From Thermodesulfovibrionales bacterium (GTDB lineage: Bacteria; Nitrospirota; Thermodesulfovibrionia; Thermodesulfovibrionales; UBA1546): DNA of 64,000 nucleotides. The stretch spans positions 166,084-230,083 of the forward strand of contig JBAQLV010000013.1 in the NCBI GenBank assembly GCA_049302185.1. Direction: 5' to 3'. The notes beneath the pieces were generated by a model, which made no database searches, was not told the DNA's origin, and saw only the letters and a list, made by a program, of their open reading frames with translations. Within the stretch, counting starts at the first letter, position 1. Every line of letters starts with the position of its first letter. Positions 7,266-62,082 of this stretch are shown here, one piece after another. A program made the translations under genes and the position numbers.

Positions 7266-8346
7266 GCTTTCCTCTCAGGTTTGGTGTTATGTGTATTTTG
7301 CCATTTTTATCCACAATTATTCCATCAATCCCCATCTCCTCAAGGAGTTTAATGCCTTTTTCAGCGCCGAGTATAAATATGCCTGTTGAAAAAGGGTCTG
7401 TTACAGAGCCGTCTTTTGCAATGATGCTTACGCTTTGACACCCATCGGCGGGATAGCCTGTTTTTGGATTAAGGATATGATGGTATCGTTTCCCTTCAAT
7501 AATAAAGTATCGCTCGTAATCTCCGGATGTTGATATTGCCATGTCAGTCATCTCTATAGTTGCCATAATCTCATCCGAAAATCCCCCATAACCCCCCTTT
7601 ACTAAAGGGGGGTTATGGGGGATTGCTCTTGGGTTTCTTATCCCTATCTTCCACGGCTTTGAATCAGGCTTTAAACCAAATGCTTTAATGTCACCTGCAA
7701 TGGATACGAGCCCTGATTTTATGCCTTCTCTTTTCAGCGCTTCCATTGTCTTGTCAGCAGCATATCCCTTTGCTATGCCTCCGAGGTCAATAAGCATTCC
7801 TTTTTTCTTGAGATAAACAGATGACGATTTTTTGTTGAGTATTATATTTTTATAGTTTACAAGCGGAAGCCTTTCTTTGATTTTTTTGTCTTCAGGTTTT
7901 GTCCTCTTATGAAAATCCCACAGGGTTGTTACAGAGCCTATTGTCACATCAAATGCGCCGTTGGTTTTTCCGGAGGCATAGACTGCCTTCTCAAGAACTG
8001 CAAATGTCTCCGGAGACACTACCACAGCTTTCAAGCCTGCATTTCTGTTTATCTCTGAAAGCTCGCTGTTGTCAGAGAAGAAATTCAGTAGCCTGTCAAG
8101 TTTTTCTATCTCCGAGAACGCCCTGTCTATTGCTTTCTCTGCATCATGACCAGAGCCTGAGACAACGCTTATTGTTACTGTGGTATCCATCACTATCCTG
8201 CTTTTGCGGTAAACCTTTTCCTTTTGAGGACTGCAGGCGCTGAGAGTGAATAGTGAATAGTGAATAGTGAACAGCAGGAAAACAGTGAACAGTGAAAGAA
8301 TAAAAAATTTGAATTTTGAATTTTGAATTTTAAACTTTTTTATCAT
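7222..8346 (-). CDS. apbE: FAD:protein FMN transferase ApbE, lipoprotein
   Basis: 374 aa; lipobox LSAC after a signal peptide; ApbE family motifs (TIGSVTTLWDF, IDLGGIAKGYAAD, AISTSGDYERYF). It carries an in-frame palindromic insert (IPHNPPLVKGGYGGF) and a heptamer-repeat-encoded signal peptide. Confidence 0.85.
   Translation of the reverse strand: MIKKFKIQNSKFKFFILSLFTVFLLFTIHYSLFTLSACSPQKEKVYRKSRIVMDTTVTISVVSGSGHDAEKAIDRAFSEIEKLDRLLNFFSDNSELSEINRNAGLKAVVVSPETFAVLEKAVYASGKTNGAFDVTIGSVTTLWDFHKRTKPEDKKIKERLPLVNYKNIILNKKSSSVYLKKKGMLIDLGGIAKGYAADKTMEALKREGIKSGLVSIAGDIKAFGLKPDSKPWKIGIRNPRAIPHNPPLVKGGYGGFSDEIMATIEMTDMAISTSGDYERYFIIEGKRYHHILNPKTGYPADGCQSVSIIAKDGSVTDPFSTGIFILGAEKGIKLLEEMGIDGIIVDKNGKIHITPNLRGKLEIIGDSQRRKRTD
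7581..7623. repeat. Nested palindromic element copy 1 (ATCCCCCATAACCCCCCTTTA-C-TAAAGGGGGGTTATGGGGGAT), in-frame inside apbE
   Basis: 21 bp perfect arms. Encodes IPHNPPLVKGGYGGF on the minus strand. Confidence 0.8.
8245..8335. repeat. Heptamer tandem arrays (AGTGAAT)n / (AACAGTG)n / (TTTTGAA)n encoding the apbE signal peptide and N-terminus
   Basis: Period-7 repeats read directly from the sequence. Translated on the minus strand they give MIKKFKIQNSKFKFFILSLFTVFLLFTIHYSLFTLSA. Confidence 0.7.
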
Positions 8347-14840: not shown

Positions 14841-15178
14841 CCCATGTGAACCGAAGCGGTATTTTTTCTTTCTTCCTTGTCCCTCTGTCCGTAGCGCTTA
14901 TTTTGTTCGGCATCTTCTCAATTGTATGGCTGAGGTCAAGTGTAAGGACAGCAGAATACAGTATTGCCGCGCTTGACCACAGGAGGATGGAAATCCTCAG
15001 GGACAGAAAGACTCTGATGGCAGAGAAGGCAGGCCTTCTGTCAATACAGAGCGTTAAAAGCAAGGGCAGCGGAAAACTCGCTTTGGTTTTCCCTGACAGA
15101 ATAAAAGTAGTTTATGTAAAAAAGGATGGGAAGAACGCTCCATTTAAGGCATCTTTAGAAGTGAGAAGTGAGAAGTGA
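14837..15178 (+). CDS. ftsL: Cell division protein FtsL-like (single-TM bitopic)
   Basis: 113 aa with one N-terminal TM helix and a coiled-coil-like periplasmic part. ATGA overlap with the rsmH stop; it sits between rsmH and ftsI as in canonical dcw clusters. Confidence 0.6.
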   Translation: MTHVNRSGIFSFFLVPLSVALILFGIFSIVWLRSSVRTAEYSIAALDHRRMEILRDRKTLMAEKAGLLSIQSVKSKGSGKLALVFPDRIKVVYVKKDGKNAPFKASLEVRSEK

Positions 15179-15232
15179 GAAGTGAGAATTTAAAACTTCT
15201 TCTTACTTCCTACTTCCTATTTCTTACTTGAA
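15157..15232. repeat. (GAAGTGA)4 array, spacer ATTTAAAA, then an imperfectly complementary (TTCCTAC)4 array at the ftsL/ftsI junction
   Basis: Period-7 arrays in inverted orientation. Mismatches are mostly G/A, which would be G-U pairs in RNA. The ftsL stop codon lies inside the first array. Confidence 0.7.
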
Positions 15233-16950: not shown

Positions 16951-17002
16951 GAGGCAGGATATGGTATTCTCGCTCATTCTCATCCCGATAAAATCGGGAC
17001 AG
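16951..17002 (+). repeat. Copy C (partial) of the 3'-end element after ftsI (…GTATTCTCGCTCATTCTCATCCCGATAAAATCGGGAC…), followed by a second hairpin CGCCTC-N13-GAGGCG
   Basis: About 85% identity with 49990-50036 over 47 nt. Confidence 0.5.
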
Positions 17003-17067: not shown

Positions 17068-18642
17068 ATGAACTTGAGGATGCTTATAAAAGATATGGAG
17101 ATAAATGAAATAATAGGCAGCGCTGATGTTGATGTAACTGGAATTGCCTATGACTCAAGGAAGGTCAAGGCAGGCGATGTCTTTGTTGCCGCAAAGGGAG
17201 AAAAGCATAACGGCCATGATTTTATCAGTGATGCGGTCAAGAAAGGCGCACTTGCAGTGGTTCATGAAAAAGCAGTAAACAGTCACTACCCCCCACTGCC
17301 CCCCCTTAGTAAGGGGGGGATTGAAGGGGGGGTAGTTTTTATCTCTGTCAGTGACAGCAGGGAGGCTCTTGCGTATCTTTCCAATAATTTTTACGAGAAG
17401 CCGTCCGATAAGTTGACTGTCATTGGAGTAACCGGAACTAATGGAAAAACAACGGCAACGTATCTTATAAAGTCAATTCTTGAGGCATGGGGAAAAGATG
17501 TCGGGCTGATAGGCACTATAAATTATCTTGTGAAGGACAGGCATTATGACGCCCCTCATACCACGCCTGAGGCGCTTGAGTTTCAGGCTGTATTGAACGA
17601 GATGGTTTCAGCGGGATGCAGCCATGTAGTGACAGAGGTATCATCCCATGCGCTTGCGCAGAAGCGGGTGGACTATACGGGTTTCAGTGTTGCAGTTTTC
17701 ACAAATCTTACAAGAGACCATCTGGATTTTCATATAACGATGGAGGAATATTTCAGGGCAAAGGAAAGACTGTTTAAAGAACTTCTTTTGAAAGACGGGA
17801 CGTCTGTAATAAATTTTGACGACCCTTATGGAAGGAGATTGATCTCCGAACTCAAGACATCGCAGCAAGGCGCGGCAAATCTACGGGATTCAAAAGCTGA
17901 AAATGTGATTACATACGGCATTGAAGCAGGAGCGGATATTGTTGCAGTAAATATTAAAAACTCATTTGACGGACTCTTGTTTGATATTAATTTCAATGGC
18001 AGGACATACAATATTCAGTCGCCGCTTATAGGTACGCACAATGTCTACAACATACTCTCTGCCGTAGGCGCTGCCGTGAGCCTGAATGTGCCGTGGGATA
18101 TGATAATAAGCGGAATAAAGAATATGGGTTCTGTAAAGGGAAGATTTCAAAAGGTTGACCTCGGACAGAATTTTCTCTGCATAGTTGACTATGCGCATAC
18201 AGAGGATGCGCTTGAAAGGCTGATATGCGCCGCCAGAGAGCTTATCAGCCAGCCACCGAAGTCACGCATTATGCATCACACCCCGCGTATTATTACTGTC
18301 TTTGGCTGCGGCGGCGACAGGGACAGGGGAAAGAGGCCGAGAATGGCCGCAATAGCAACAAAACTGAGCGATTACGTTGTGATAACCTCTGATAATCCCC
18401 GCAGCGAAGAACCGATGGAGATAATAAAAGCGATAGAGAAAGGCGCATTGAGGATGAATTATACAATTGAACCCGACAGGGAGAAGGCTATTCAGAAGGC
18501 GGTGGAGACCGCAGAAGAAGGCGATATACTGCTGATTGCAGGAAAGGGGCACGAGGATTATCAGGAGATAAAAGGCGCAAGGCATAAATTCAGAGATAGA
18601 GAGATAGCGGAGAAGGCGATAAGGAGATTATGGCGATTTTAA
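17068..18642 (+). CDS. murE: UDP-N-acetylmuramoyl-L-alanyl-D-glutamate--2,6-diaminopimelate ligase MurE
   Basis: Mur ligase P-loop [10 protein letters not shown] and the DNPR motif (TSDNPRSEEP) that marks meso-DAP-adding enzymes. Contains an in-frame palindromic insert YPPLPPLSKGGIEGG. Confidence 0.9.
   Translation: MNLRMLIKDMEINEIIGSADVDVTGIAYDSRKVKAGDVFVAAKGEKHNGHDFISDAVKKGALAVVHEKAVNSHYPPLPPLSKGGIEGGVVFISVSDSREALAYLSNNFYEKPSDKLTVIGVTGTNGKTTATYLIKSILEAWGKDVGLIGTINYLVKDRHYDAPHTTPEALEFQAVLNEMVSAGCSHVVTEVSSHALAQKRVDYTGFSVAVFTNLTRDHLDFHITMEEYFRAKERLFKELLLKDGTSVINFDDPYGRRLISELKTSQQGAANLRDSKAENVITYGIEAGADIVAVNIKNSFDGLLFDINFNGRTYNIQSPLIGTHNVYNILSAVGAAVSLNVPWDMIISGIKNMGSVKGRFQKVDLGQNFLCIVDYAHTEDALERLICAARELISQPPKSRIMHHTPRIITVFGCGGDRDRGKRPRMAAIATKLSDYVVITSDNPRSEEPMEIIKAIEKGALRMNYTIEPDREKAIQKAVETAEEGDILLIAGKGHEDYQEIKGARHKFRDREIAEKAIRRLWRF
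17287..17335. repeat. Nested palindromic element copy 2 (CTACCCCCC-actg-CCCCCCC-TTAGTAA-GGGGGGG-attgaa-GGGGGGGTAG), in-frame inside murE
   Basis: Encodes YPPLPPLSKGGIEGGV. Same architecture as the copies at 7581, 26075 and 45924. Confidence 0.8.
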
Positions 18643-20033: not shown

Positions 20034-21105
20034 TCTTCTTTATAGCTTGCATGATTGGTTTTCTCCATTTAATGTCTTCAGATATATAACGTTCAGGACC
20101 GCGCTTGCAGTGCTTACGGCAATGCTTATTACATTCATCCTCGGTCCGAGGGTTATAAAAAGACTCAGGAGGTTCAGCGTAACGCAACAGATAAGAGATG
20201 ACGGGCCCCGGACGCATATGGGCAAGACAGGAACACCCACGATGGGCGGAGCCCTCATAATAATCTCTATTCTTGCCACCGTTCTCTTGTGGGGCGACCT
20301 TACCAATAAATATATACTGATGATGATTTTTTCTCTCATAGGTTTTGGAGCGATAGGATTTATTGATGATTATCTGAAGGTTGTAAAGAGAGACTCAAAA
20401 GGACTGCGCGGCTGTTATAAATTCGGGGCGCAGGTTCTTCTTGCCTTGGCGATAAGCATGTTTCTTTACATGAACCCTAAAGACCCTTACAACGATGTCT
20501 TGAGCATTCCATTCTTTAAAAAATGGCTTTTTGATCTCGGATGGTTTTATGTGCCATTCTCTATAGTTGTTATCGTAGGGTCATCCAATGCAGTCAATCT
20601 AACGGACGGCATAGACGGCCTCGCTGTAGGGCTTGTTGGGATTGCAGTGCTTGCCACAGGAATACTTGTTTATATATCCGGCAATTTCAAGTTTTCACAA
20701 TATCTGCAGGTTCTTTATATCCCCGGCACAGGAGAGCTGACTGTATTTTGCGGCGCTATTCTTGGGGCATCTCTCGGTTTCCTCTGGTATAACTCATATC
20801 CGGCGGATGTGTTTATGGGAGATGTCGGCTCTCTGTCTCTCGGCGGCGTGCTCGGAACGCTTGCTGTAATAACAAAACAGGAGATAGTGCTTGCGGTCGT
20901 GGGAGGAATTTTTGTTATAGAGACGCTCTCGGTCGTGTTTCAGGTCGCATCGTTCAAGTTAACAGGGAAAAGGATATTCAGGATGGCGCCAATACACCAT
21001 CACTTTGAACTCAAGGGATGGCCTGAACCTAAAGTTATAGTCAGATTCTGGATAGTCGGAATAATGCTGGCTCTTCTGAGCCTTGCAACATTAAAGCTGA
21101 GGTGA
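20023..21105 (+). CDS. mraY: Phospho-N-acetylmuramoyl-pentapeptide transferase MraY
   Basis: 360 aa polytopic membrane protein with MraY signatures ([28 protein letters not shown]). Confidence 0.95.
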
Positions 21106-22265
21106 TTATGAGACAGTCAACAGAGCAACAGAGCAGTAGAGCAACAGAGCAGCAGTCTTTAGTACAGAAATCTTTAGCAACTGCGCTACTGAGCTACTGC
21201 GCTACTGGGCTGCTGCGTTTCTGGGCTACTGCTCTTATCTCACTGTTCGCTGTTCACTGTTCACTGTTCACTGCTTATGCTGATGAGATTTCCTCAAAGG
21301 CAGCGGTTGTTATGAAGGTTTCAACAGGAAGGGTCCTGTTTGCAAAAAATCCAAATCTGAAACTGCCTCCTGCAAGCACAACTAAACTTGTGACAGCCAT
21401 GGTTGTTCTTGACAGGGCTAAGATGAGCGATACAGTGACAATCAGTGAGGCAGCGGCAAATGTCCCCTCGCTTAAGAAGACCAAACTGAGGGCAGGAGAG
21501 ACTTTGACTGTAGAAACTCTGCTTTACGCTGCGCTTATAAGGTCGGCAAATGATGCAGCCTTTGCGCTTGCAGAGGTTGTTGCCGGCTCGGAGAAGAAAT
21601 TCGTGCAGCTTATGAACAGAAAGGCTATAGCAATAGGAGCATCCAACACAAGGTTTATAAATACTACAGGACTTCCCGGCAAAGGTCAGCATACAACAGC
21701 ATATGACCTCTCAAAGATAATGAGGTATGCGCTTAAATATCCTGTGATAAAAGAGATTATAGGCAAGAAAGAGGCAGAGATAGCTACGGAACAGGGCAGG
21801 ACTATAGCCCTTGAAAATACGAATAAACTTCTATGGTCTGATAACGGAGCAGTCGGCGGCAAGACAGGATATACGAAAGCGGCAAGGCATTGTTTTGTGT
21901 ACGCAGGCGAAAGAGAAGGAGAGATGGTGATAGTTGCTATTCTTGGAGCGCGGAGCAGAGAGATTTTATGGAATGAGGCGGAGAAGCTCGAAACAAGAGG
22001 TTTTGCTGTTATTGCAAGCAATGAGCAGCCGGTTGTTTATTTCACAAAGGCGGATTATCAAAAAAGTTCAAAGTTCAAAGTTCAAAGTTCAAAGTTAAAG
22101 ACATATTCAAAAAATAATAAAGCAAAATCAGATAAGGTTGCATCAAAAAAGAAGCTGAATAAGGCAAAGGCCACTAAAAAGTACAATGACAGCCCCGCAA
22201 AGGAGAGCAAAAGAACAAAGGATAAAGGGATCGCTAGAAACGTGGCATATGGAAATAAGGGATAA
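21102..22265 (+). CDS. dacC: Serine-type D-Ala-D-Ala carboxypeptidase (PBP5/6-like, peptidase S11) with a repeat-encoded N-terminus and a Lys-rich C-terminal tail
   Basis: SxxK (ASTTKLV), SxN (RSANDAA), KTG (GKTGYT) active-site triad. The N-terminal 60 aa and part of the C-terminal tail are encoded by heptamer tandem arrays. The true start may be internal. Confidence 0.8.
21105..21295. repeat. Series of heptamer arrays ((AACAGAG)n, (CTACTG[ACG]G)n, (CACTGTT)n) forming the first ~190 nt of the dacC-like ORF
   Basis: Period-7/8 repeats read directly from the sequence. Confidence 0.7.
22065..22100. repeat. (AAGTTCA)4-5 array near the dacC 3' end
   Basis: Period-7 repeat; encodes [10 protein letters not shown]. 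Confidence 0.7.
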
Positions 22266-23706
22266 GAAAATACTTGTTTTCGGCCTTGCAGAGAGCGGTG
22301 TTGGCGCTTCAAATCTGCTTGCCGGCCTTGGCGCAAAGGTAACGGTTACTGACAGAAAACCGAAGGAAGCGTTAATGAAATATGTTGAAAGGCTTTTGCC
22401 TGCGGTAAGGCTCAGTCTTGGCGGGCATCCTGACGGGATACTGCAAGGCGTGGATATGATAGTGCTAAGTCCCGGTGTGCCGCCTGACATACAGCCGTTG
22501 AAGAAGGCTATGGAGATTGGGATAAGGATTATCGGCGAACTTGAACTTGCGTATCAGATAATAAGTTCAAAATTCAAAGTTCAAAATTCAAAGCTTCCAA
22601 AATTTCTGGCGATAACAGGAACAAACGGTAAATCAACCACTACAACATTATTAAATGAGATGTTAAATAAAGGAGGCTTCAGGACAATTCTGGGAGGGAA
22701 TATCGGAAATGCCCTGACAGAGGAGATATTTGGATTAGTCAGAAGTCAGAAAACCGATGATGATTTTCTGATAACTCTTAACTCTCAACTCTCAACTCTT
22801 AACTACGTGGTCGCTGAGGTGTCAAGTTTTCAGCTTGAGGCGATAGAGATGTTCAGGCCTGATGGCGCATCCATACTCAATATCACACCTGACCATATGG
22901 ACAGATACCATTCAATGGAAAAATACAAAGACGCAAAGGCGCAGATATTCGCAAACCAGAGAGAAGGAGATTTTCTTGTCCTTAATGCGGATGACCCTGA
23001 GACACTCAAAGTTAGAAGTGAGAAGTTAGAAGTGAAAAGTGAAAAACCAAGAATCTATTATTTCAGCCGCAAAAAAGCGGTAGAAGGGGTCTATTTCAAA
23101 GATGGAGTTATTTATTCTAACTTCAACTCTTCACTCTTAACTCTTAACTCTCAACTTCTGCGTGCTGATGAGATAAACATTAAAGGTGTTCACAACCTGG
23201 AGAATGCCATGGCTGCTTCGGCCATGGCTCTCCTTGCAGGATGTCCGGCAGATGCAGTTATAAGCGCCTTGAAAGATTTTGAGGGGCTTGAACACCGTCT
23301 TGAACTTGTCAGGGAATTTGAAGGCGTTGATTACATCAATGACTCAAAAGGCACGAATGCAGATGCGGTGGTAAAGTCGCTTGAAAGTTTTTCAATGCCA
23401 GTAATCCTGATTGCAGGCGGAAGAGACAAAGACGGAGATTTTTCTCTTCTGAGTTCTCTCATAAAAAGCAGAGTAAAAAAACTCGTTCTCATCGGAGAGG
23501 CAAGGGAAAAAATAAAAAAAGTTCTTGGCGGACTGACAGAGACCATATTTGCAGATAATCTGGAAGAGGCTGTGATGATATCCAGAAAATCAGCATCAAA
23601 AGGCGATGTTGTGCTCCTCTCTCCCGCATGCGCAAGTTTTGATATGTTCAGGGATTACAAAGACAGGGGAGAGCAGTTTAAAAAGATTGTGAAGGGTTTA
23701 TCCTGA
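22249..23706 (+). CDS. murD: UDP-N-acetylmuramoylalanine--D-glutamate ligase MurD (with four in-frame heptamer-array inserts)
   Basis: Rossmann N-terminus [19 protein letters not shown], Mur ligase P-loop ITGTNGKSTTT. The start was moved to the ATG at 22249 ([13 protein letters not shown]). Low-complexity inserts: SSKFKVQNSKL, LNSQLSTLN, VRSEKLEVKSEK, NSSLLTLNSQLL. Confidence 0.9.
   Translation: MEIRDKKILVFGLAESGVGASNLLAGLGAKVTVTDRKPKEALMKYVERLLPAVRLSLGGHPDGILQGVDMIVLSPGVPPDIQPLKKAMEIGIRIIGELELAYQIISSKFKVQNSKLPKFLAITGTNGKSTTTTLLNEMLNKGGFRTILGGNIGNALTEEIFGLVRSQKTDDDFLITLNSQLSTLNYVVAEVSSFQLEAIEMFRPDGASILNITPDHMDRYHSMEKYKDAKAQIFANQREGDFLVLNADDPETLKVRSEKLEVKSEKPRIYYFSRKKAVEGVYFKDGVIYSNFNSSLLTLNSQLLRADEINIKGVHNLENAMAASAMALLAGCPADAVISALKDFEGLEHRLELVREFEGVDYINDSKGTNADAVVKSLESFSMPVILIAGGRDKDGDFSLLSSLIKSRVKKLVLIGEAREKIKKVLGGLTETIFADNLEEAVMISRKSASKGDVVLLSPACASFDMFRDYKDRGEQFKKIVKGLS
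22564..23157. repeat. Four separate heptamer arrays inside murD ((AGTTCAA/AATTCAA)n at 22564-22594; (AACTCTC/AACTCTT)n at 22773-22803; (GAAGTGA/GAAGTTA)n at 23010-23045; (AACTCTT…)n at 23119-23157)
   Basis: Period-7 repeats; each insertion length keeps the frame. Confidence 0.7.
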
Positions 23707-24874: not shown

Positions 24875-24934
24875 TTTAAAGTTCAGAGTTAGGAGTTTAG
24901 AGTTAAAAGGCAGTCACTGTTCATTGGAAGTTGT

Positions 24935-26032: not shown

Positions 26033-26074
26033 ACAGTGAATGATAAACAAAAGGATGCAGGATACAAGATACAA

Positions 26075-26117
26075 CCCCCCTCTATCCCCCCTTAGTAAGG
26101 GGGGAATTAAAAGGGGG
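26075..26117. repeat. Nested palindromic element copy 3 (CCCCCC-tctat-CCCCCC-TTAGTAA-GGGGGG-aattaaaa-GGGGG), intergenic, upstream of murC
   Basis: Read directly from the sequence; ends 23 nt before the murC ATG. Confidence 0.8.
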
Positions 26118-26139
26118 TATCGTGCATCATGAAGGAGCG

Positions 26140-28510: not shown

Positions 28511-29468
28511 AAAGATAGGCGTTTTAATGGGCGGCATATCCAGCGAGAGAGAGGTTTCGCTGAGAAGCGGGGGCGCGGTTTTCAATGCCCTGAAAAAACT
28601 CAGGTATAACGCTGTTGCTATAGATGCTGCGTCAAACATATGCGAGGTGTTGAAAAAAGAGAAGATTGATATAGCATTTCTTGTTCTTCACGGAGGCTGG
28701 GGAGAAGACGGCTCTATACAGGGGCTTCTTGAAGTTATGGGAATTCCTTATACAGGGTCTGATGTCATTTCCTCGGCGATTGCAATGAACAAGGCGGCGT
28801 CAAAGAAGATATTTTTTTATCACAGAATTCCATCTCCGCCATTCATAATAGTTCGGAGTTCGGAGTTCGGAGTTCGGAGTTCGTTGCAAGGATATGATCT
28901 CAAAACTCAAAACTCAAAACTCAAAACTGATTTTGAAATGCCGTGGGTTGTCAAACCTGTATGTGAAGGGTCAAGCGTTGGTGTGAGCGTAGTGAAGGAC
29001 AAAGCCCAGATTGAAAGCGCGCTCAAGAATGGTTTTTCATACGGCAACGAGATAATCATAGAAAAATACATAGAGGGCAAGGAAGTCCATATAGGGATTA
29101 TTAATGACAGGGCGCTCGGAGGTGTTGAGGTAAAGACATCACTTGAATTTTACAGCTACGAGGCAAAATACACAGCAGGTTTAACTGAATATATACTCCC
29201 TCCTAAAATAGAGGAAGCAGTGTATATGAAGGCAAAAGATATTGCCCTTTCAGCGAACAGAGCGCTCGGTTGTTCAGGAGCGACAAGGGTTGATTTGAGG
29301 ATTGATAATGACGGCAATCCCTATGTGCTTGAAGTTAACACAATACCGGGCATGACAGAAACAAGCCTCTTGCCGAAGATTGCAAAGGAGGCGGGATTTG
29401 ATTTCCCGGCGCTTGTGGAGGAGATTCTTAAAGACGCAATTGAAAGAGAGCAGAAAAGGCATAGATGA
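28497..29468 (+). CDS. ddl: D-alanine--D-alanine ligase Ddl (with in-frame heptamer-array inserts)
   Basis: ATP-grasp; N-terminal [18 protein letters not shown]; C-terminal [16 protein letters not shown]. Inserts [10 protein letters not shown] and [10 protein letters not shown] are encoded by (GTTCGGA)n and (CTCAAAA)n. Confidence 0.9.
28855..28931. repeat. (GTTCGGA)4 and (CTCAAAA)4 arrays inside ddl
   Basis: Period-7 repeats; encode SSEFGVRSS…[10 protein letters not shown]. Confidence 0.7.
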
Positions 29469-30244: not shown

Positions 30245-31572
30245 GAATAAGAGATCCGCTTGGACGAAAAGGAAATATTGTCGTCGGGCTTGATGTCGGC
30301 ACAACCAAAATATGCGCCATCGTAGGCGAGGTTAGAGGCGGCAAGACTGATATTATAGCCATAGGTTCGGCCCCATCAACAGGTTTAAGAAAGGGTGTTG
30401 TGATAAATATAGAATCTACTGTTGATTCAATAAAGAAGGCAGTAAAAGATGCCGAGGCAATGGCAGGCATTGAGATAAAGTCTGTTTATGTCGGGATTGC
30501 CGGAGGGCATATAAAGGGTTTTGAGAGTTATGGGGCTGTCGGCATAAAAGGGAAAGAAGTAAAGCCTCAGGATGTTGAGCGCGCCATAGATTCTGCAAGC
30601 GTTGTATATGTTCCGCTTGACAGAGAGGTTCTTCATGTAATCCCCACTGAATTCATACTTGACGGACAGGATGGGATAAAAGACCCGGTTGGCATGGCAG
30701 GGGTCAGGCTTGAGGTAAAGGTTCATATAGTTACAGGCGCTGTGCCGTCTGTGCAGAATCTTCTTAAGTGCTGCGAGAGAGCAGGCATTGATGTCATTGA
30801 TATTGTGCTTGAGCCTATTGCCTCTGCAGCGGCAGTGCTTACGGAAGACGAGAAAGACCTCGGCGCCGCGCTCGTTGATATAGGCGGAGGAACAACAGAC
30901 ATCGCGATATATAAAGATGGAAGCCTCAGGCACACAGCGGTTCTTGCGCTTGGCGGCAATCATTTTACGAATGATATCGGTATTGGTTTGAGAATCCCTG
31001 TGCAGGAGGCGGAGAGGATAAAGAAAAAATATGGCTGTGCGATTACAAGTATGGTTGATGAGGCAGAGGAGATGGATGTTGCAGGCGCAGACAAACAGGT
31101 AAGGAAAATACCGAGGCGGTATATCGCAGAGATTATACAACCGAGGTGTGAGGAACTTACAGAATTGATAAAGCGTGAAATAGAAAACAGTTCCGGACTT
31201 GAGCCCGGATTGTCTGGGGTTATTTTGACAGGCGGAGCATCCCTGCTTGCAGGGCTTGACAGGTTAATGGAGGCAAATCTGGGACTTTCGGTGAGAATCG
31301 GAATGCCTGATGGGATAGAGTCAAGCTGCGCTTCAAACTCACCTCTCTTTCAGAGTAATGTGAATAATCCGATGTATTCAACAGGGGTAGGCCTTATTCT
31401 CCACAGCATAGATGGAGAGCCTGTCCCGAACGCTTTCGGGATTAATGGAGATATGTTCAACGGGATATTTGACCGGATGAAGGAATGGGTAAGAAATCTG
31501 TTCGGTGTTAATGGTCATGAGTTGAGAGGTAAGTCCCGAACGCTTTCGGGATCAATGAGGCAGAGGATATGA
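30241..31572 (+). CDS. ftsA: Cell division protein FtsA (actin-like ATPase) with an unusual C-terminal extension created by a direct repeat
   Basis: Actin fold phosphate-1/2 motifs (VVGLDVGTTKICAIVGE, DIGGGTTDIAIY) and an amphipathic membrane-targeting helix (GIFDRMKEWVRNLF), followed by about 21 extra residues. Confidence 0.9.
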   Translation: MRIRDPLGRKGNIVVGLDVGTTKICAIVGEVRGGKTDIIAIGSAPSTGLRKGVVINIESTVDSIKKAVKDAEAMAGIEIKSVYVGIAGGHIKGFESYGAVGIKGKEVKPQDVERAIDSASVVYVPLDREVLHVIPTEFILDGQDGIKDPVGMAGVRLEVKVHIVTGAVPSVQNLLKCCERAGIDVIDIVLEPIASAAAVLTEDEKDLGAALVDIGGGTTDIAIYKDGSLRHTAVLALGGNHFTNDIGIGLRIPVQEAERIKKKYGCAITSMVDEAEEMDVAGADKQVRKIPRRYIAEIIQPRCEELTELIKREIENSSGLEPGLSGVILTGGASLLAGLDRLMEANLGLSVRIGMPDGIESSCASNSPLFQSNVNNPMYSTGVGLILHSIDGEPVPNAFGINGDMFNGIFDRMKEWVRNLFGVNGHELRGKSRTLSGSMRQRI

Positions 31573-35425: not shown

Positions 35426-35500
35426 ATGATACAGGATGCAAGATACAAGATGCAGGATAAAAAACATTGTGTATCATGCATCGTGCATCATGTATCGTTA
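35426..35500. repeat. (GATACAA/GATGCAG)n array followed by a (TGCATCG/TGCATCA)n array upstream of lpxI
   Basis: Period-7 repeats in partly inverted orientation. Confidence 0.6.
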
Positions 35501-44984: not shown

Positions 44985-46013
44985 CTAAAAATCAAATGTA
45001 ACTGTCTCTGAAGGTTCGCTCTCTTTAAGCGGCCCGACAGCAGTTACCCTGTATGTGTGCTTAATCCCTGTTTTCTCTCTTAAAGTGAACGCAGGGGTCA
45101 CGGATTCTTTTACGAGGTTGAATCCGTCTTTTTCATTCACTTTATCGTAAATCCTGTATTTTGTCACCCACATCTCAGGATTTTCTTTCCATGAAATAAC
45201 GACTCTATCGTCTGCGACAACTGTTTGAAACCCTTCGGGCTTTGTCGGGATAAAGGTTGAAGGGTCAACCTTTATTTCCACTGATGCCTGTCCTTCACTC
45301 CGGAATTTCTTGCTCAAAAGACTGCGGATTGTATAATAAACAGGACTGCCTGTTTCCAGATTGTCGGAATATTTGAGCGCTGTCATCGGTTCTTTATTGA
45401 TTGGGTTGATACTGTATTTGCCTTTCTCGGCGCTTCTGTAAACATTATAAAGGATATTTTCACCTGCGCTATCCCATGAGATGTGCAGGGCATCATTGCC
45501 AACCTTGAATGAGATATTCTTCGGAGCAGGAGGAACAGCTTCAGGTTTTATTGCAATTATGTTTGAATCCTCGCTGAGGATGTTTTTCAGGCTTCCGGCA
45601 ATGAGTTTGTATTTATAAAGAGCGCCTGTCTTAAAATTAACATCTGTGTAGGAATTTTCCTCCTTGGGTACGGACGCTATTTTCTGAAAGCTGCTGTCTT
45701 CTGCCCTGAGAATATGAAATTCTTTCAGGTTTTCTTTTTTTGAAGTGTACGACCATGAGAGGAAAATTCTGTCTTCTCTGTGTATTGCCTTAACAGCCGC
45801 AGGCGCAGAGGGTTTTTCATATGCTTTGAGTGTAGGAGGTCCTTTTTTCCCGCAGGAGACAAGCATGAGGCAAGCAGCAAACAACAAAAAAGATGCACGA
45901 TACACGATGCATGATGCCTGATACCCCCCTTTAATTCCCCCCTTACTAAGGGGGGATAGGGGGGGGTTGTATCCTGCATCCTGTTTTAACTGCTGAGTGC
46001 TGACCGCTTTCAT
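44985..46013 (-). CDS. Hypothetical lipoprotein with fibronectin-III-like beta-sandwich repeats; the N-terminus is built from repeat elements
   Basis: Signal peptide plus lipobox (LMLVSCGKK). Upstream of that, the ORF reads through a nested palindrome ([15 protein letters not shown]) and a heptamer array, so the true start is probably internal. Confidence 0.5.
45924..45968. repeat. Nested palindromic element copy 4 (CCCCCC-tttaatt-CCCCCC-TTACTAA-GGGGGG-atag-GGGGGGGG), within the 5' region of the lipoprotein ORF
   Basis: Encodes [15 protein letters not shown] on the minus strand, in the same relative frame as in murE. Confidence 0.8.
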
Positions 46014-55827: not shown

Positions 55828-55922
<95 letters not shown>

Positions 55923-55924
55923 GA

Positions 55925-56012
55925 AACGGCAGTTAGTTAAAAGTTGAGAGTGAAAAGTGAAAAGTTTTAGAGACTCGAAACTTCTAACTTTCAACTTTAA
56001 ACTTTTAACTTA
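55925..56012. repeat. Long inverted heptamer-array hairpin (GTTAAAAGTTGAGAGTGAAAAGTGAAAAGTT-ttagagactcg-AAACTTCTAACTTTCAACTTTAAACTTTTAAC) immediately 3' of tRNA-Ser(GCU)
   Basis: Inverted repeat of period-7 units; a likely transcription terminator for the tRNA. Confidence 0.6.
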
Positions 56013-58444: not shown

Positions 58445-61180
58445 TTGATTAATTCTAAAGGGGCATATATGCGCTGGCATCAGAAAGAGACTAAAGATAT
58501 ATTAGACGACCTGCAGTCGTCTTCAAAAGGGCTTTCTTCAGAAGAGGCGCAGAAGCGGCTGCTCGAATATGGCCCGAATGAATTAAAGGAAAAAGAAAAG
58601 AGAACTCTTTTTATGATGTTCCTTGACCAGTTCAAGGACTTCATGATTCTTGTTCTGATTGCTGCTGCAATAATTTCCGGCATTATCGGCGAACCCGCGG
58701 ATACTATAGCCATTATAGTAATCGTTGTCCTTAATGCCGTCATAGGATTTATTCAGGAATACAGGGCGGAAAAGGCTATGGCTGCCCTTAAAAAGATGGC
58801 TGCGCACACCGCCCTTGTATTGAGAGGCGGCATGCCGGCAAATATTTCCGCATCAGAAATTGTTCCGGGCGATATTGTATTGCTTGAGGCAGGGAAAGTT
58901 GTGCCTGCTGATATGAGGCTGATAGAAACCGCACAGTTGAAAGTTGAAGAGGCAGCCCTTACCGGCGAATCTATCCCGGTAGAAAAACATATAAAGGCAT
59001 TGCATGACGAGATGCTGCCGCTCGGCGACAGAAAAAATATGGCATACAAAGGCACTACCGTGTCGTACGGCAGAGGCGCCGGTATTACAGCGGCTACCGG
59101 AATGGACACCGAGCTTGGAAAGATTGCAACCATGCTTCAGGAGGAAGAAGAGGTAAAAACACCCCTTCAAAAAAGGCTCGCTGCATTTGGGAAGAAGCTT
59201 GCCATTGCGGTGCTTGCAATATGCGCCGTAGTCTTCGGCATAGGGGTTTTCAGGGGCGAACCTGCCTTGTTGATGCTCTTGACCGCCATATCCCTTGCTG
59301 TGGCAGCGATACCTGAAGCGCTTCCTGCTGTTATAACCATATCCCTTGCCCTCGGCGCAAAGAAGATGGTTAAGCAGAATGCCCTGATAAGAAAGCTCCC
59401 TGCTGTTGAGACCCTCGGCTCCGTCACATACATATGCTCTGACAAGACAGGGACGCTGACACAGAACAGGATGAGGGTGGAAGAGATATATGTGGACGAA
59501 AGAATAGTAACGAGTTACGAGTTACGAGTTATGAGTAAAGAGGAATTTGATAAACTTGTTACTTGTCACTCGTCACTTGTCACTTTTTTCAATGCCCTTG
59601 CTTTAAGCAATGACGCGAAGCCTGACAGGGATGGGAATATCATCGGCGATCCTACAGAGGTTGCTCTTTTCAATATTGCAAAAGACAAAGGTTTTGATAA
59701 GAATGAGATGGAAAATCAGATGCCGAGGGTTGCCGAAATCCCTTTTGACTCCGACAGGAAGTGCATGACGACGTTTCACAAGATACAAGATACAGGATAC
59801 AGGATACAAGATGGAAAAAATCGTGCATCGTGCATCATGAATCATGCATCTTTTATTTCTTTCACCAAAGGCGCGATTGAAGTTCTTCTGGAAAAATCAG
59901 ACGGCATCCTCAAATCAGGCGGGACAGTAAAGATAGATAGGGAAGAGATTCACAGGGTTAATGAAAGGATGGCTGCTGACGGACTGAGAGTGCTCGGTAT
60001 TGCGATGAGGGGATGGAATGAGCTTCCCTCAGACATGTCCCATGAGAATGTGGAAAGAGGACTTATAATCATAGGCCTTGTAGGCATGATGGATCCTCCG
60101 AGGGAGGAGGCAAGGGAGGCAGTGGCAATGTGCCAAACTGCAGGGATAAAACCCGTTATGATTACCGGCGACCATCCGATTACAGCATGGGCAATTGCAA
60201 GAAGGATAGGCATTATTGAGGAAGATGATGTGCACTTTAACACCATAACGGGAAGAGAACTTGAGAAGTTATCCTTACAAGAATTCGAAGAGAGGGTTGA
60301 ACATATAAGTGTTTATGCGAGGGTTGCGCCCGAGCAGAAATTAAAAATAGTAAAAGCCCTTCAGGACAAAGGTCAATTTGTTGCAATGACAGGAGACGGT
60401 GTGAATGATGCGCCCGCATTAAAAAGAGCAGACATTGGCGTTGCAATGGGAATAACTGGAACAGATGTTGCGAAAGAGTCAGCTCACATGATACTTATGG
60501 ACGATAATTTTGCGACTATTGTAAAGGCAGTAAAAGAGGGAAGAAAGATATATGACAATATAAGAAAGTTTATAAAGTACCTTCTTACAACAAACTCAGG
60601 AGAGATATGGACACTCTTCTTCGCACCCCTTGTCGGCTTGCCGATTCCGCTTCTGCCGATCCATATACTCTGGATAAACCTTGTTACGGACGGGCTCCCT
60701 GCCCTTGCCCTCTCTGCCGAGCCCGCAGAGGGAGATGTGATGAGCAGACCGCCAAGGCATCCCAAGGAGAGCATATTCGCCCACGGATTGGGGCTTCATG
60801 CCATATGGGTCGGTCTCTTGATGGGTGGAGTTGTTCTGTTTGTCCAGGCATGGGCCATCAGGACGGAACATGCTCATTGGCAGACAATGGTATTTACAGT
60901 TCTGTGCCTTACTCAGCTTGGACATGTCCTTGCCATCAGGTCGGAAAAGGAGTCATTGTTCAGGATTGGAATATTTTCAAACAAATATCTCCTCGGTGCA
61001 GTAGCATTGACCTTTGCCCTTCAGATGGCAACGATCTATATACCATTCCTGAACCCTATTTTTAAGACAGAGCCTTTGACTCTAAATGAATTAATATTTA
61101 CACTCGCCATATCATCTGTGGTATTCTTTGCAGTGGAATTAGAAAAGCTTTTCAGGAGGAAGAAATGGCTCAGGTATTGA
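58445..61180 (+). CDS. P-type ATPase, type IIA (Ca2+-transporting, PacL/SERCA-like), with in-frame heptamer-array inserts
   Basis: CSDKTGTLT phosphorylation motif, [24 protein letters not shown], 10 TM helices; 911 aa. Two low-complexity inserts ([10 protein letters not shown]…TCHSSLVT and [10 protein letters not shown]…ASCIMNHAS) are encoded by heptamer arrays. Confidence 0.9.
59497..59852. repeat. Two heptamer-array blocks inside the P-type ATPase ((GTTACGA)4 … (GTCACTT/GTCACTC)4 at 59497-59590; (GATACAA/GATACAG)5 … (GTGCATC/ATGCATC)4 at 59770-59852)
   Basis: Period-7 repeats; each block is array-spacer-(near)inverted array and in-frame. Confidence 0.7.
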
Positions 61181-62082
61181 TGGAGACTGATTTAAAGGAT
61201 ATAAAATTCCTCAGGCGCGGAAAGGTGCGCGATGTCTATGAGATAGATGACTATCTTCTGATAATAGCTACTGACAGGGTATCAGCCTTTGATGTCGTTC
61301 TTCCGAATGGAATTCAGGATAAGGGCAAAATCCTTACTCAGATATCAATATACTGGTTTAACCAGATGAAAGACATAATGGAAAACCATATTGTTGCAAC
61401 AGATGTAAAAGACTATCCAGAGGTTTTACATAAATACAAAGACATTCTTGAAGGAAGAAGCATGCTCGTTAAGAAGGCAAAGCCGATGCCTGTTGAATGC
61501 ATTGTGAGGGGGTATCTCTCAGGCTCGGGATGGAAGGAATACAAAAAATCAGGCACAGTCTGCGGCATTAAACTTCCCGATGGGCTTGTTGAATCCGCAA
61601 GGCTTGATGAGCCGATATTCACTCCAAGCACAAAGGCAGAAGAGGAGCATGACATAAACATAAGCTTTGATGAGATGAAAAAGATTGTCGGTGATGATAC
61701 TGCAAACAAGCTCAGGAATACAAGCCTCAGAGTCTATAAAAAGGCGAGGGAGATGGCAGAGAAGAAGGGAATAATAATCGCAGATACAAAGATGGAATTC
61801 GGCATATATCAAGATGCAGGATGCAAGATGCAGGATGCAAGCAGTCGGAAAGGGAAGTTGATTCTGATTGATGAAATACTCACTCCTGATTCATCACGCT
61901 TCTGGTCTATGAAGGATTATAAGCCCGGAAAAAGTCAGGACAGTTTTGACAAGCAGATTATCCGCGACTATCTTCTTACGCTTGACTGGAACCAGACATA
62001 TCCCGGCCCAAAACTTCCTGATGAAATCGTGGAAAAGACTGCTGCGAGGTATAGGGAGATATTGGGGATATTGACGGGGTAG
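61165..62082 (+). CDS. purC: Phosphoribosylaminoimidazole-succinocarboxamide synthase PurC
   Basis: SAICAR synthetase motifs ([30 protein letters not shown]); the ATG at 61165 has the RBS AGGAGG. Carries an in-frame heptamer insert ([11 protein letters not shown]). Confidence 0.9.
61801..61846. repeat. (CAAGATG/CAGGATG)n array inside purC
   Basis: Period-7 repeat encoding [13 protein letters not shown]. Confidence 0.65.

Follow-up and report, generated by a model that had tools for sequence, protein, structure and literature searches.

How do tandem repeats of a 7-nt unit, which is not a multiple of three so that slippage by a single unit switches the reading frame, persist in frame within conserved housekeeping genes? 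The question is raised by the 64-kb stretch of DNA analysed here (the window), for which a preliminary description had noted more than 20 such arrays. In our view, the arrays probably represent small selfish repeat modules found throughout the lineage: heptamer-armed hairpins that are copied, prone to slippage and filtered by selection.

Period-7 arrays in the window and in related genomes

Arrays were detected with TRF and with a separate period scan, using dinucleotide shuffles as the null. At a score of at least 9, the window holds 25 period-7 arrays (0.25 in the shuffles), and 19 remain at a score of at least 12 (0 in the shuffles); the arrays described previously were recovered where they had been placed. 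Enrichment in the window was seen at periods 7, 14 (2 × 7) and, weakly, 8, and at no other period. Most arrays (18/25, 72%) are located in CDS (Table 1). Array density is 36 and 50 per 100 kb in the window and its close relatives, as compared with 2.6 per 100 kb in 73 outgroup dcw loci (1.2 Mb): the arrays are lineage-wide and lineage-specific.

All sequences compared stem from metagenome assemblies, which might suggest an assembly or sequencing artefact. MEGAHIT small-k stages might collapse a 33-nt periodic tract, although this would touch the x3/x2 alleles of murD only, and the broken murD calls of other clusters are in part simple indel errors of long reads. Such an origin is hardly credible, given that MAGs obtained independently in different studies share these arrays and their positions, that the arrays are much shorter than the reads and that distinct SNP and spacer haplotypes accompany the murD x3 allele. 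Site 2 of murD matches that of L081 at 100% over 81 nt, and site 4 is 100% identical in L002, L003, L081 and L082. Because independent MAGs carry the same arrays with intact ORFs, the artefact that the preliminary description had allowed for is excluded for the window, and refuted for the arrays themselves.

Table 1. Repeat-bearing features of the window and the genes that host them
Feature	Position	Strand	Units	Remarks and basis
apbE arrays (n = 3)	8245..8331	-	AGTGAAT, AACAGTG, TTTGAAT	within first ~35 codons of apbE
ftsL/ftsI inverted pair	15157..15229	+	AGAAGTG x4.6 / CTTCCTA x4.4	covers ftsL stop and ftsL/ftsI spacer
dacC-like D-Ala-D-Ala carboxypeptidase gene (Peptidase_S11)	21102..22265	+		repeat host; Pfam PF00768, E 5e-61, aa 57-284
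dacC inverted pair, period 8	21118..21232	+	CAACAGAG x4.8; ACTGCGCT x6.6	TRF
dacC array	21240..21273	+	TCACTGT x4.9	hydrophobic core of DacC signal peptide: 14 residues, then |DE
dacC C-terminal array	22063..22100	+	AAAGTTC x5.6	L002/L004/L006/L081 are shorter here by exactly 3 units (21 nt)
murD (UDP-MurNAc-L-Ala:D-Glu ligase)	22249..23706	+		485 aa, four repeat-derived inserts; Pfam, alignments
murD site 1	22563..22604	+	AGTTCAA/AATTCAA x ~6	peptide SSKFKVQNSKL, loop before P-loop strand
murD site 2	22737..22804	+	AGTCAGA x2.1 / TAACTCT/CAACTCT x4.7	short left arm, loop, right array
murD site 3	23008..23045	+	AAGTGAG/AAGTTAG x5	peptide VRSEKLEVKSEK
murD site 4	23118..23156	+	AACTCTT/AACTCTC x4.6	peptide NSSLLTLNSQLL, beta-hairpin loop
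ftsW/murG spacer array	24876..24906	+		TRF; comparison with relatives
murG/murC spacer	26052..26117	+	GATRCAR arm	followed by GC-rich double palindrome C6-N4-C6-TTAGTAA-G6-N4-G5
ddl inverted pair	28850..28928	+	AGTTCGG x4.9 / CTCAAAA x4.3	linker between N-terminal and central domains
lpxA/lpxI junction inverted pair	35428..35498	+	GATRCAR family	TRF, fold, cross-matches
Lipoprotein signal-peptide N-region (31 residues)	45892..45983	-	GATRCAR hairpin	nested GC double palindrome
tRNA-downstream inverted pair	55949..56011	+	AGTGAAA / AACTTTC	30 nt 3' of tRNA gene
P-type Ca-ATPase-like gene, N-domain, in-frame inverted pair	59506..59585	+	AGTTACG x4.4 / ACTTGTC x4.6	
P-type Ca-ATPase-like gene, in-frame pair	59778..59850	+	GATRCAR family	~24-aa insert before KGAxE strand
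purC array	61810..61841	+	GATGCAG/GATGCAA x4.6	TRF

Unit composition, array size and hairpins

The units are very diverse: dozens of different ones occur, and orthologous sites can carry different units. A hallmark is the AGT[G/T] core of 16/25 and 36/65 arrays (~60%, 9% expected); array size peaks at ~4.5 units, and the size distribution contains none above 5.5. Many arrays form imperfect inverted pairs that are predicted to fold as periodic hairpins (z = -3 to -7), and 11 of 19 pairs of neighbouring arms show 5/7 complementarity (21% by chance for 5/7 or better). The ftsL/ftsI pair (-31.8 kcal/mol, z = -5.6) is found in the window only; relatives have an unrelated 51 nt at this place. TCCCGA...TCGGGA and GC double-palindrome elements are nested within arrays or hairpin loops, and two further small palindrome families reside in frame within murE and ftsA. 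In Nostocaceae, small dispersed repeats (SDRs) are likewise said, by Elhai and colleagues, to be nested inside tandem heptamers.

The arrays could be functional cis-elements: protein sites read in 7-nt steps, for instance by cold-shock or S1-type proteins or a ribbon-helix-helix protein, RNA or DNA hairpins acting in mRNA stability, termination or tRNA processing, or true contingency switches, including one in murD. The core motif common to the units and the strong stability of the predicted hairpins are in line with this, as is the filling of many operon spacers; moreover, the two tRNA genes following that in Table 1 have similar arrays behind them (56712-56741 and 57415-57450), so that each of the three is followed by one. 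At identities as low as 61%, the insert sites of a clade are still occupied; murD alleles that are out of frame are present on several haplotypes (see below), and CspB binding to heptamer repeats is discussed in PMC4679880. A cis-acting role is nevertheless improbable. The right ddl arm of L005 is the exact complement of the left arm in the window, and the ddl arms of both have drifted without compensating change in the partner arm; pairing between arms is apparently not under selection, and murD site 3 likewise switches allele where site 4 is unaltered. No strand is consistently favoured in hairpin folding, no Rfam family matches, orthologous sites are hypervariable in unit and copy number, and housekeeping CDS, where 18 of the 25 arrays reside, is an unexpected place for a regulatory site. 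The hairpins themselves are presumably non-functional.

In-frame inserts in murD, dacC and other genes

The genes with in-frame arrays are conserved, and their catalytic motifs are invariant in alignments of MurD, the P-type ATPase, Ddl and PurC. The four peptides previously quoted from MurD are true insertions relative to outgroup MurD (443-448 aa). In the AF2 model (pLDDT 82; TM 0.84-0.87 to solved MurD), all four are placed between secondary-structure elements of an intact fold, in an otherwise canonical MurD. Alignment to orthologues likewise positions the inserts of Ddl and PurC in an interdomain linker and a hairpin loop, respectively. The latter is a clean 11-aa (33 nt) insert relative to yeast PurC; in ddl the net gain is ~7 aa versus E. 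coli DdlB, the arrays having overwritten native sequence instead of being added to it.

Among 118 MurD homologues, sites 1 (6-29 aa) and 2 (8-43 aa) are hypervariable; site 2 of relatives contains a complete inverted pair, at times with a nested GC palindrome. Site 3, in contrast, has an almost fixed length (17 aa in 105/118 sequences) and is an old insert; together with site 4 it retains length and peptide (SEKLKVKSEKP) in a clade that extends to 61% identity, which, judged from the alignments, suggests constraint on the protein more than turnover of a selfish repeat. Peptides such as SEKLKVKSEKP and NSSLLTLNSQL might be useful surface loops, with the nucleotide periodicity a relic of their origin; the conserved consensus of both sites and the modelling of site 3 as a helix extension (pLDDT 83-87) are consistent with this. 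For the arrays as a whole, such selection is very unlikely: sites 1 and 2 have unrelated sequences, site 3 is exchanged in several lineages for an unrelated allele, identical modules are also found in non-coding spacers, and one module encodes pieces of unrelated proteins. The alleles of the four sites are distributed incongruently among relatives, which fits recombination.

For the dacC-like gene, the preliminary account holds in part. Of the N-terminal residues attributed to heptamers, only those encoded by 21240-21273 derive from them, most of the region (21118-21232) having period 8/16; the C-terminal tail includes one array, and its remainder is Lys-rich without periodicity. Residence in essential genes applies to murD, whereas dacC-like (Peptidase_S11) genes are not essential in model bacteria. 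The period-8 pair encodes the long N-region of the DacC signal peptide (fold z = -3.0, + strand), and the region orthologous to the following array spans 79 to 176 nt among relatives. At the C-terminus, L004 and L006 carry non-repetitive sequence as long as that of L002; the latter contains a proto-repeat of 2 units, as against 5 units in the window, from which an origin in place appears possible.

Length change in whole units

Between strains with 99.7-99.8% identity, murD shows a length difference of exactly 1 or 2 heptamer units, and the ftsW/murG spacer, which contains a different array or pair in every relative, one of 1 unit. Copy-number polymorphism, which the preliminary description had suggested looking for, thus exists and involves whole units, in support of its notion of active expansion by slippage. 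In relatives, the alternative GATTCAA allele of murD site 3 occurs as x4, x3 and x2. In-frame alleles differ in steps of 3 units (21 nt), as for SEVRSQK in the left arm of murD site 2 and for QDAGYKI; L003 has 3 more units than L002 on each arm.

The claim that insertions are always multiples of 3 is true of the window, trivially so because its ORFs are intact; in related populations, frameshifted murD alleles (-7 and -14 nt) were assembled, and on at least 5 haplotypes they constitute the consensus of the assembly. Simple purifying selection acting on an essential gene does not readily account for this. The coexistence of on and off alleles in closely related strains resembles contingency loci, the phase-variable SSRs of host-adapted pathogens. 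These, however, affect dispensable surface or restriction genes and have 1-5 nt units in long tracts, whereas the present arrays are short (about 5 units at most) and lie in core enzymes (murD, ddl, purC), where off states should be lethal; murD is an essential gene, and switching it off should kill the cell. The earlier reading, purifying selection on the reading frame rather than classical contingency loci, is supported, the selective filter being presumed.

Recurrence of modules at unrelated loci

Shared heptamers had been noted in unrelated genes, and three such matches (apbE with murD site 1, ftsL/ftsI with murD site 3, the dacC C-terminus with murD site 1) were verified, each at 93-94% over 30-31 nt. 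Beyond single arrays, complete modules, non-periodic loops included, are found again at unrelated loci with 84-96% identity, in agreement with the proposal of a mobile or recombinogenic repeat. In L086, the ftsW/murG spacer has been swapped out, the background being 99.8% identical; over 76 nt, the incoming sequence matches the 5' end of L001 dacC at 96%. The dacC pair at 21118-21232 belongs to this type of cassette, seen in relatives in three unrelated contexts (mraY/dacC, ftsW/murG and NIF3-like/dnaG). Within the window, 26058-26121 matches 45983-45920 on the opposite strand (94% over 64 nt), and the lpxA/lpxI pair matches the murD site 2 insert of L003 (86% over 66 nt). GATRCAR hairpins occur in several spacers, at lpxA/lpxI, in the ATPase gene and, in relatives, at murD sites 1 and 2. 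Recognisable peptides contributed by such families, IQDxGY(K/R)IQD...SCI(M/V)xHAS and PPLxKGGxxGG, are found in several proteins.

These matches bear on pure microsatellite dynamics of the 'long SSR' class, i.e. a lineage with replication or repair unusually prone to slippage of ~7-nt units and no mobility, in which arrays arise from chance proto-repeats, pairs from quasi-palindrome template switching and inter-locus similarity by convergence. The possible in-place origin at the dacC C-terminus, the polymorphism by whole units and the diversity of units, also at orthologous sites, agree with it; neither transposase, RAYT nor reverse transcriptase was found within the 64 kb, and many prokaryotes have heptanucleotide SSRs as their most frequent long-SSR class (summarised in PMC4679880 and PMC4692102). 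We consider it unlikely: against it stand the loops without periodicity that unrelated loci have in common (96% over 76 nt, 94% over 64 nt, the three-context cassette), exchange of a whole spacer in a 99.8%-identical background, the strong AGT[GT] bias and a size distribution that is peaked instead of decaying. Since neither target-site duplications nor defined element ends were established for the modules, 'mobile' may equally mean ectopic gene conversion or inter-strain recombination.

Proposed mechanism

Selfish modules could generate the observed arrays in the following manner. The canonical module would be an imperfect hairpin of ~65-115 nt with a short loop and two arms, each of about 4.5 tandem 7-nt (sometimes 8-nt) units; single arrays may be half-modules or may have grown in place. 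Two processes would act on it. Complete modules may be copied elsewhere or exchanged at hot spots by a transposition-like or ectopic-recombination mechanism, and slipped-strand mispairing may lengthen or shorten the arms by whole units. Variant units would be homogenised inside each arm, whereby the two arms drift apart. Within genes, modules would be tolerated at permissive places, namely signal-peptide N-regions, C-terminal tails, interdomain linkers and loops between secondary-structure elements, and would persist only if their net length preserves the reading frame and stop codons within it have been lost by mutation; under this filter, stable changes would therefore occur in 3-unit (21 nt, 7 aa) steps.

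Comparison with known repeat families

Heptanucleotide long SSRs of prokaryotes (Mrazek et al. 2007; cyanobacterial STRR) and their named units, TAACTGA of Beggiatoaceae and cyanobacteria (MacGregor 2015) and GGGNATC of Xanthomonas and Nostoc (Rehm 2015), are summarised in PMC4679880 and PMC4692102. According to these summaries, they share with the present arrays tandem 7-nt units, typically in 2-6 copies (about four preferred for GGGNATC), a sporadic phylogeny and many occurrences per genome. The known families are built from one or a few fixed units and have been described as residing chiefly between genes, with a depletion in CDS, whereas the window has dozens of units, 72% of arrays in CDS, many inverted pairs and recurring modules; none of the named units is among its arrays.

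REPIN, REP and MITE elements are similar in being short non-autonomous hairpins with two inverted arms and many dispersed copies, mostly in intergenic spacers (PMC3116915; PMC10969869). REP arms, however, are themselves short palindromes of fixed sequence mobilised by RAYT transposases, as opposed to tandem heptamers that differ between copies, in a window lacking RAYT. The SDRs of Nostocaceae (Elhai et al. 2008; mentioned in PMC5861425) are ~20-27 nt hairpin-like mobile repeats in a heptamer-rich genome; the nested elements found here belong to another phylum, have other sequences and are also translated within essential genes. Rickettsia palindromic elements (RPE; Ogata et al. 2000, 2002; reviewed in PMC10969869) are likewise small palindromes in frame in unrelated housekeeping genes, at structurally permissive positions and with a recognisable peptide per family. 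They measure ~100-150 bp and have no internal tandem periodicity, unit slippage has not been reported for them, and sequence similarity is not expected. Their host is an obligate intracellular alphaproteobacterium, that of the arrays an uncultured, free-living subsurface Nitrospirota.

The hairpin arms, the unit bias, the size cap, the overwriting in ddl and the out-of-frame murD alleles go beyond the preliminary description. The family is best read as combining features of heptanucleotide microsatellites, REPIN/MITE elements and the in-frame palindromes of Rickettsia.

Heptanucleotide arrays in a housekeeping region

The window (44% GC) covers housekeeping genes of an uncultured member of the Nitrospirota, order Thermodesulfovibrionales, and, like every sequence considered here, it comes from a metagenome assembly. 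According to Pfam, it contains pckG, suf genes, apbE, a uvrA-like gene and deaD, followed by a complete dcw cluster (mraZ-rsmH-ftsL-ftsI-murE-murF-mraY-dacC-murD-ftsW-murG-murC-murB-ddl-ftsQ-ftsA-ftsZ) and, 3' of it, by lpx genes, typA, pnp, isc genes, three tRNAs, a P-type ATPase and purC. Three ORFs have no Pfam match (Table).

Tandem Repeats Finder returned 68 rows for the window, with period 7 predominant. A period scan against dinucleotide-preserving shuffles detected 25 period-7 arrays at a score of at least 9 (0.25 in shuffles) and 19 at a score of at least 12 (none in shuffles); period 8 was weakly enriched, and periods 4-6 and 9-13 showed no excess above background in the window. Both methods recovered, in place, the arrays that a preliminary description had reported from the sequence alone, and the four MurD peptides it quoted were confirmed. 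Eighteen of the 25 arrays lie in coding sequences, 12 of them internally and six within about 60 codons of an end, and the other seven are intergenic; as 89.1% of the window is coding, arrays are approximately three times denser per kb in spacers, even though most of them are translated.

An AGT[G/T] core on either strand is found in 16 of the 25 window arrays and in 36 of 65 arrays of relatives, the latter being partly orthologous to the former and the pooled counts thus non-independent, compared to 9% of random window 7-mers. A second enriched unit family is GAT[A/G]CA. AACAGTG/CACTGTT units look similar to the V(D)J heptamer CACAGTG, a likeness that was dismissed as a coincidence within the AGT[G/T] family. 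Array size peaks at ~4.5 units (30-33 nt), and none of the arrays in 184 kb exceeds 5.5 units. The named heptamer families TAACTGA, STRR1-3 (CCCCAGT/TTGGTCA/CAACAGT) and GGGNATC do not occur even as doublets in the window or in the loci of 10 relatives, which rules out identity with them.

Coordinates of repeat elements and neighbouring features
Feature	Sequence	Coordinates	Location or remark
murD site 1	window	22563-22604	repeat-derived insert
murD site 2	window	22737-22804	repeat-derived insert
murD site 3	window	23008-23045	repeat-derived insert
murD site 4	window	23118-23156	repeat-derived insert
Inverted pair, period 7	window	15157-15229	
Inverted pair, period 7	window	28850-28928	
Inverted pair, period 7	window	35428-35498	
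Inverted pair, period 7	window	55949-56011	downstream of tRNA
Inverted pair, period 7	window	59506-59585	
Inverted pair, period 7	window	59778-59850	
Inverted pair, period 8	window	21118-21232	
Array, period 8	window	11048-11074	
GC double palindrome	window	17289-17332	murE
GC double palindrome	window	7583-7621	apbE
GC double palindrome	window	26075-26117	
GC double palindrome	window	45924-45966	
TCCCGA hairpin	window	31424-31441	ftsA C-terminal tail
TCCCGA hairpin	window	31534-31551	ftsA C-terminal tail
TCCCGA hairpin	window	16983-16999	
TCCCGA hairpin	L003	10329-10345	
TCCCGA hairpin	L006	8605-8623	
tRNA gene	window	55828-55919	
tRNA gene	window	56596-56669	
Array after tRNA	window	56712-56741	
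tRNA gene	window	57317-57403	
Array after tRNA	window	57415-57450	
Hairpin module	L013	6086-6185	spacer
Hairpin module	L013	9863-9975	spacer
Hairpin module	L013	14470-14575	spacer
Pair	L013	2135-2205	CDS
(CTCAAAA)4 array	L015	13111-13137	
Peptidase_S11 gene (dacC-like)	window	21102-22265	between mraY and murD
ORF, no Pfam match	window	2-1513 (-)	504 aa
ORF, no Pfam match	window	42495-42917	140 aa
ORF, no Pfam match	window	56029-56586	185 aa

Hairpin architecture

In many cases, two arrays face each other as the arms of an imperfect inverted pair, with 5-25 nt between them. For six of eight pairs tested, the minimum free energy is far below that of shuffles (z = -3 to -7), and the stems are strikingly periodic, with ~6 bp and one mismatch per unit. 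Among 19 adjacent pairs, the consensus units of 11 are Watson-Crick complementary at 5/7 positions, a level attained or surpassed by 21% of random unit pairs; those of none reach 6/7 or 7/7. By folding and complementarity, the arrays thus have the hairpin-forming inverted arms of MITE- or REPIN-like elements.

Selection on mRNA structure was considered as an explanation and ruled out: folding shows no consistent preference for the sense or the antisense strand, and the arms drift without compensation in orthologous pairs. The pair in ddl is instructive. The right arm of one close relative, (AACTCCG)n in L005, is the exact complement of the left arm of the window, (AGTTCGG)n, which implies that the ancestral pair would have been a perfect palindrome. 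In each of the two genomes one arm is altered throughout with no compensating change, a pattern indicative of concerted evolution within an arm, pairing apparently not being conserved; the hairpins bear no apparent sign of selection.

Arrays of period 8, found twice in the window and in the ftsA/ftsZ spacers of the relatives L005 and L006, resemble the heptamer arrays in behaviour: they form inverted pairs, share a common unit family (CAGTAGAG/CAACAGAG) and include a mobile cassette. Their enrichment over outgroups is 8-16-fold.

Inserts in MurD and other core proteins

The MurD of the window comprises 485 aa, compared to 443-448 aa in outgroups, and an alignment with six close relatives, all of which carry the additional segments, places the four of them precisely at the arrays; neither the P-loop nor any catalytic residue varies. 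This expanded form (467-528 aa) is common to 117 further metagenomic sequences, down to 61% identity; no exact copy of the window MurD is on record in public assemblies. An AlphaFold model based on the expanded-family alignment (pLDDT 82, pTM 0.77) matches solved MurD structures at target-normalised TM-scores of 0.84-0.87. In the model, site 1 is in the loop before the P-loop strand, site 2 forms a helix-loop-helix excursion, site 3 covers a helix end and the following loop, and site 4 is a beta-hairpin loop. All four are positioned between secondary-structure elements, with locally reduced pLDDT, and we infer that the inserts are probably surface-exposed.

Other enzymes accommodate repeats in a similar way. 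PurC has a clean loop insert of 11 aa (33 nt), the P-type ATPase contains two hairpin modules within its nucleotide-binding domain, and in Ddl an inverted pair occupies a variable linker with a net gain of only ~7 aa, so that the native sequence has been largely overwritten. The surface-loop placement that the preliminary description had anticipated for MurD, Ddl and PurC is borne out for loops and linker, exposure being predicted from the model. Palindromic repeats are in frame in murD, ddl and dacC, twice in the P-type ATPase gene and once in the signal peptide of a lipoprotein, other palindrome families are in frame in murE and ftsA, and the four MurD sites, the PurC loop and the Ddl linker, partly as judged from the predicted model, are structurally permissive positions. 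At murD site 2, CAA replaces TAA in the very unit where TAA would be in frame, an example of the copies without in-frame stops that selection would leave. In model organisms, murD and ddl are essential and dacC is not.

The Peptidase_S11 D-Ala-D-Ala carboxypeptidase gene (dacC-like) is kept in the dcw cluster of all close relatives. Its signal-peptide region is wholly different among them (79 to 176 nt) despite flanks that are ~90% identical.

Slippage in whole units

At orthologous sites, units and copy numbers differ among relatives. Across 118 MurD sequences, site 1 ranges from 6 to 29 aa and site 2 from 8 to 43 aa; sites 3 and 4 are almost fixed in length, site 3 being 17 aa in 105 of the 118 (consensus SEKLKVKSEKP). 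Several differences are in-frame steps of exactly three units: the dacC C-terminus (51 vs 30 nt, that is, 21 nt or 7 aa), the left arm of murD site 2 (+SEVRSQK and +QDAGYKI) and both arms of a pair that are longer in L003 than in L002 (+42 nt in total). As the sole length change within clusters, 7-aa steps were ruled out, since many differences stem from nested palindromes, from a different choice of start codon in gene calling or from other indels. At the dacC C-terminus, the sequence of L004 and L006 is non-repetitive and equal in length to a two-unit proto-repeat in L002; arrays can therefore originate in place.

The clearest sign of slippage is the change by whole units within one population, the MurD cluster of the metagenomic homologue P0018, where contigs 99.7-99.8% identical over 6.9 kb differ in the unit number of murD site 3: (GATTCAA)4 is in frame (500 aa), (GATTCAA)3 lacks 7 nt and (GATTCAA)2 lacks 14 nt. 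One contig of the cluster is also one unit short in the ftsW/murG spacer array. The copy-number polymorphism that the preliminary description proposed to look for among strains thus exists; its statement that only multiples of three nucleotides occur holds for the window and fails in related populations, in which the -7 and -14 nt murD alleles are assembled. These alleles frameshift murD, the downstream frame having no start codon for ~60 codons, and no start able to rescue the downstream part was found in the loci concerned (L083-L087). No fewer than four SNP or spacer haplotypes carry the three-unit allele, and the shortened alleles together are the assembled consensus on at least five haplotypes from several ENA samples (L083-L087, relatives of L088). 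They may be either viable, possibly by way of polyploidy or recoding, or artefacts of the assembler. The truncated MurD sequences of clusters 6 and 9 were ruled out as products of slippage; their breaks fall outside the repeats and resemble indel errors of long reads.

Probable mobility of modules

In L086, a contig of this population whose background is 99.8% identical, the entire ftsW/murG spacer is replaced. A 76-nt stretch of the new spacer, which includes a 33-nt non-periodic loop, shows 96% identity (E = 9e-31) to the 5' coding region of dacC in another genome, L001, and a metagenome scan with this loop revealed three settings of the cassette at ~95% identity: mraY/dacC, ftsW/murG and NIF3-like/dnaG. 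Two stretches of the window share 94% identity over 64 nt: 26058-26121 in the murG/murC spacer and 45920-45983, on the opposite strand in a lipoprotein signal peptide. A hairpin with GATRCAR arms and an A-rich loop recurs at no fewer than six loci, among them lpxA/lpxI, the ATPase gene and several spacers of relatives; it is also present at murD site 2 of L002, L003 and P0040 and at site 1 of P0015, and gives rise to the recurrent peptide IQDxGY(K/R)IQD...SCI(M/V)xHAS. As in MITE- or REPIN-like elements, dispersed copies are alike beyond the repeat unit, for example in their loops.

No transposase-like gene (e.g. RAYT or IS200/IS605 TnpA) is found in the 64-kb window, and a local mobilising enzyme was rejected, as Pfam assigned only housekeeping genes among nearly all ORFs that reach 80 aa. 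Comparisons of filled with different sites at ftsL/ftsI, ftsW/murG and the ftsA tail yielded no clean insertion junction with target duplication; the segments are replaced instead. For both reasons, we only infer from the sequences how the modules would be copied.

Recombination between strains is a serious alternative to module copying. The four murD sites disagree in how they group the window, L001-L006, L081, L082 and P0040 by shared alleles: site 1 groups the window with L002 and L003, site 2 groups it with L001, L081 and L082, and the GATTCAA allele of site 3 is found in L003, L006 and L081 as well as in the distant P0040. This incongruence suggests genes that may be mosaic through recombination, or repeated exchange of cassettes. 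The possibility that sites 3 and 4 form a split hairpin was ruled out, site 3 changing its allele while site 4 remains unchanged.

Nested palindromes and tRNA neighbours

Two further small elements are intertwined with the heptamer arrays. The window contains a GC-rich double palindrome (C6-N4-C6-TTAGTAA-G6-N4-G6) four times. In murE it is read in frame (YPPLPPLSKGGIEGG), twice it lies within the loop of a GATRCAR heptamer hairpin, and in many relatives the element encodes NPPIPPL(V/L)KGG(K/E)GGF peptides at MurD sites 1 and 2. A tiny hairpin (TCCCGA-N5-6-TCGGGA) occurs three times in the window, compared to 0.02 expected; two identical copies flank the membrane-targeting helix of FtsA in frame. 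In relatives, these hairpins are present, absent or replaced in steps divisible by 3 nt, and the heptamer arrays of murD harbour nested copies.

Each of the three tRNA genes, the only known RNA families in the window, has a heptamer array or pair within 12-43 nt of its 3' end. Such repeats could serve as processing or termination hairpins, or the positions could merely be permissive spacers.

Distribution across lineages

Array density per 100 kb is 36 in the window and 50 in nine close relatives (120 kb), compared to 2.6 in 73 other genomes (1.2 Mb of dcw loci), two of whose loci are themselves array-rich. In Ca. Desantisbacteria CG1_02_49_89 (outgroup locus L013), a hairpin of the form (AATTATG)4 - conserved loop - (AYTCATA)4 is present in three different spacers, in addition to a pair in a CDS, and the deltaproteobacterial locus L015 contains a (CTCAAAA)4 array identical to the right arm of the window ddl pair. 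Since the Desantisbacteria locus has the same design, the array architecture extends beyond one phylum.

A proposed family of selfish modules and its relation to known repeats

The data are consistent with a family of selfish heptamer-armed hairpin modules, which would be copied from site to site and slip in whole units; within genes, selection would spare only those copies that lie in permissive segments, keep the frame and contain no in-frame stop. These modules unite features of three systems: heptanucleotide long SSRs, REPIN/MITE-like hairpins and the in-frame palindromic elements of Rickettsia. Heptanucleotide long SSRs are over-represented and have been described as mainly non-coding (PMC4679880, PMC4692102); the arrays share with them head-to-tail copies of a unit within the range of 5-11 nt, in runs longer and commoner than by chance, and whole-unit changes between strains 99.7-99.8% identical, but not the location, 18 of 25 being in CDS. 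Palindromic elements inserted in frame are known from Rickettsia (PMC10969869). The window modules are comparably dense inside core enzymes; they differ from the Rickettsia elements in composition and size, and membership is therefore not claimed. Contingency loci reside in dispensable genes, typically for surface or restriction-modification functions, whereas the hosts here are murD, ddl, purC, the ATPase gene, ftsA and murE; the shortened murD alleles may be off states of a frame-switching repeat.

A more far-reaching scenario, which we regard as improbable, invokes dedicated machinery that writes or moves the arrays, is biased to AGT[G/T], measures 7 nt, caps arms at ~31 nt, swaps cassettes at hot spots and is maybe shared horizontally among subsurface phyla, as the architecture of the Desantisbacteria locus would allow; the frameshifted murD alleles would then exist in nature, with polyploid heterozygosity or translational recoding making them tolerable, and core genes would truly vary by unit slippage.

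In the literature covered, which is far from complete, no description was found of repeats that combine slippage, movement and in-frame hairpins, or of such repeats in Nitrospirota; no paper linked heptanucleotide repeats to terms beginning with Nitrospir, and broader searches gave nothing closer.

Significance

Heptamer repeats have been known in bacteria since 1990 and are treated as intergenic curiosities; in a 2007 study, heptamers were reportedly the commonest class of long microsatellites. Here, they are hairpin modules that slip and apparently also move, inside core enzymes. Gene callers and quality metrics for metagenome-assembled genomes will mis-handle the genes concerned: ORFs will be split, 'hypothetical' peptides such as PPLxKGG will be called spuriously, and alignments will break at hypervariable segments. 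The inserts also map the loops of MurD, MurE, Ddl, PurC, FtsA and the P-type ATPase that accept 10-40 additional residues. If the out-of-frame murD alleles are true, one must ask how a gene that is essential endures frequent frameshifting. With more than 100 related metagenomic lineages, the modules constitute a natural system for the birth, spread and homogenisation of repeats and their domestication at the protein level.
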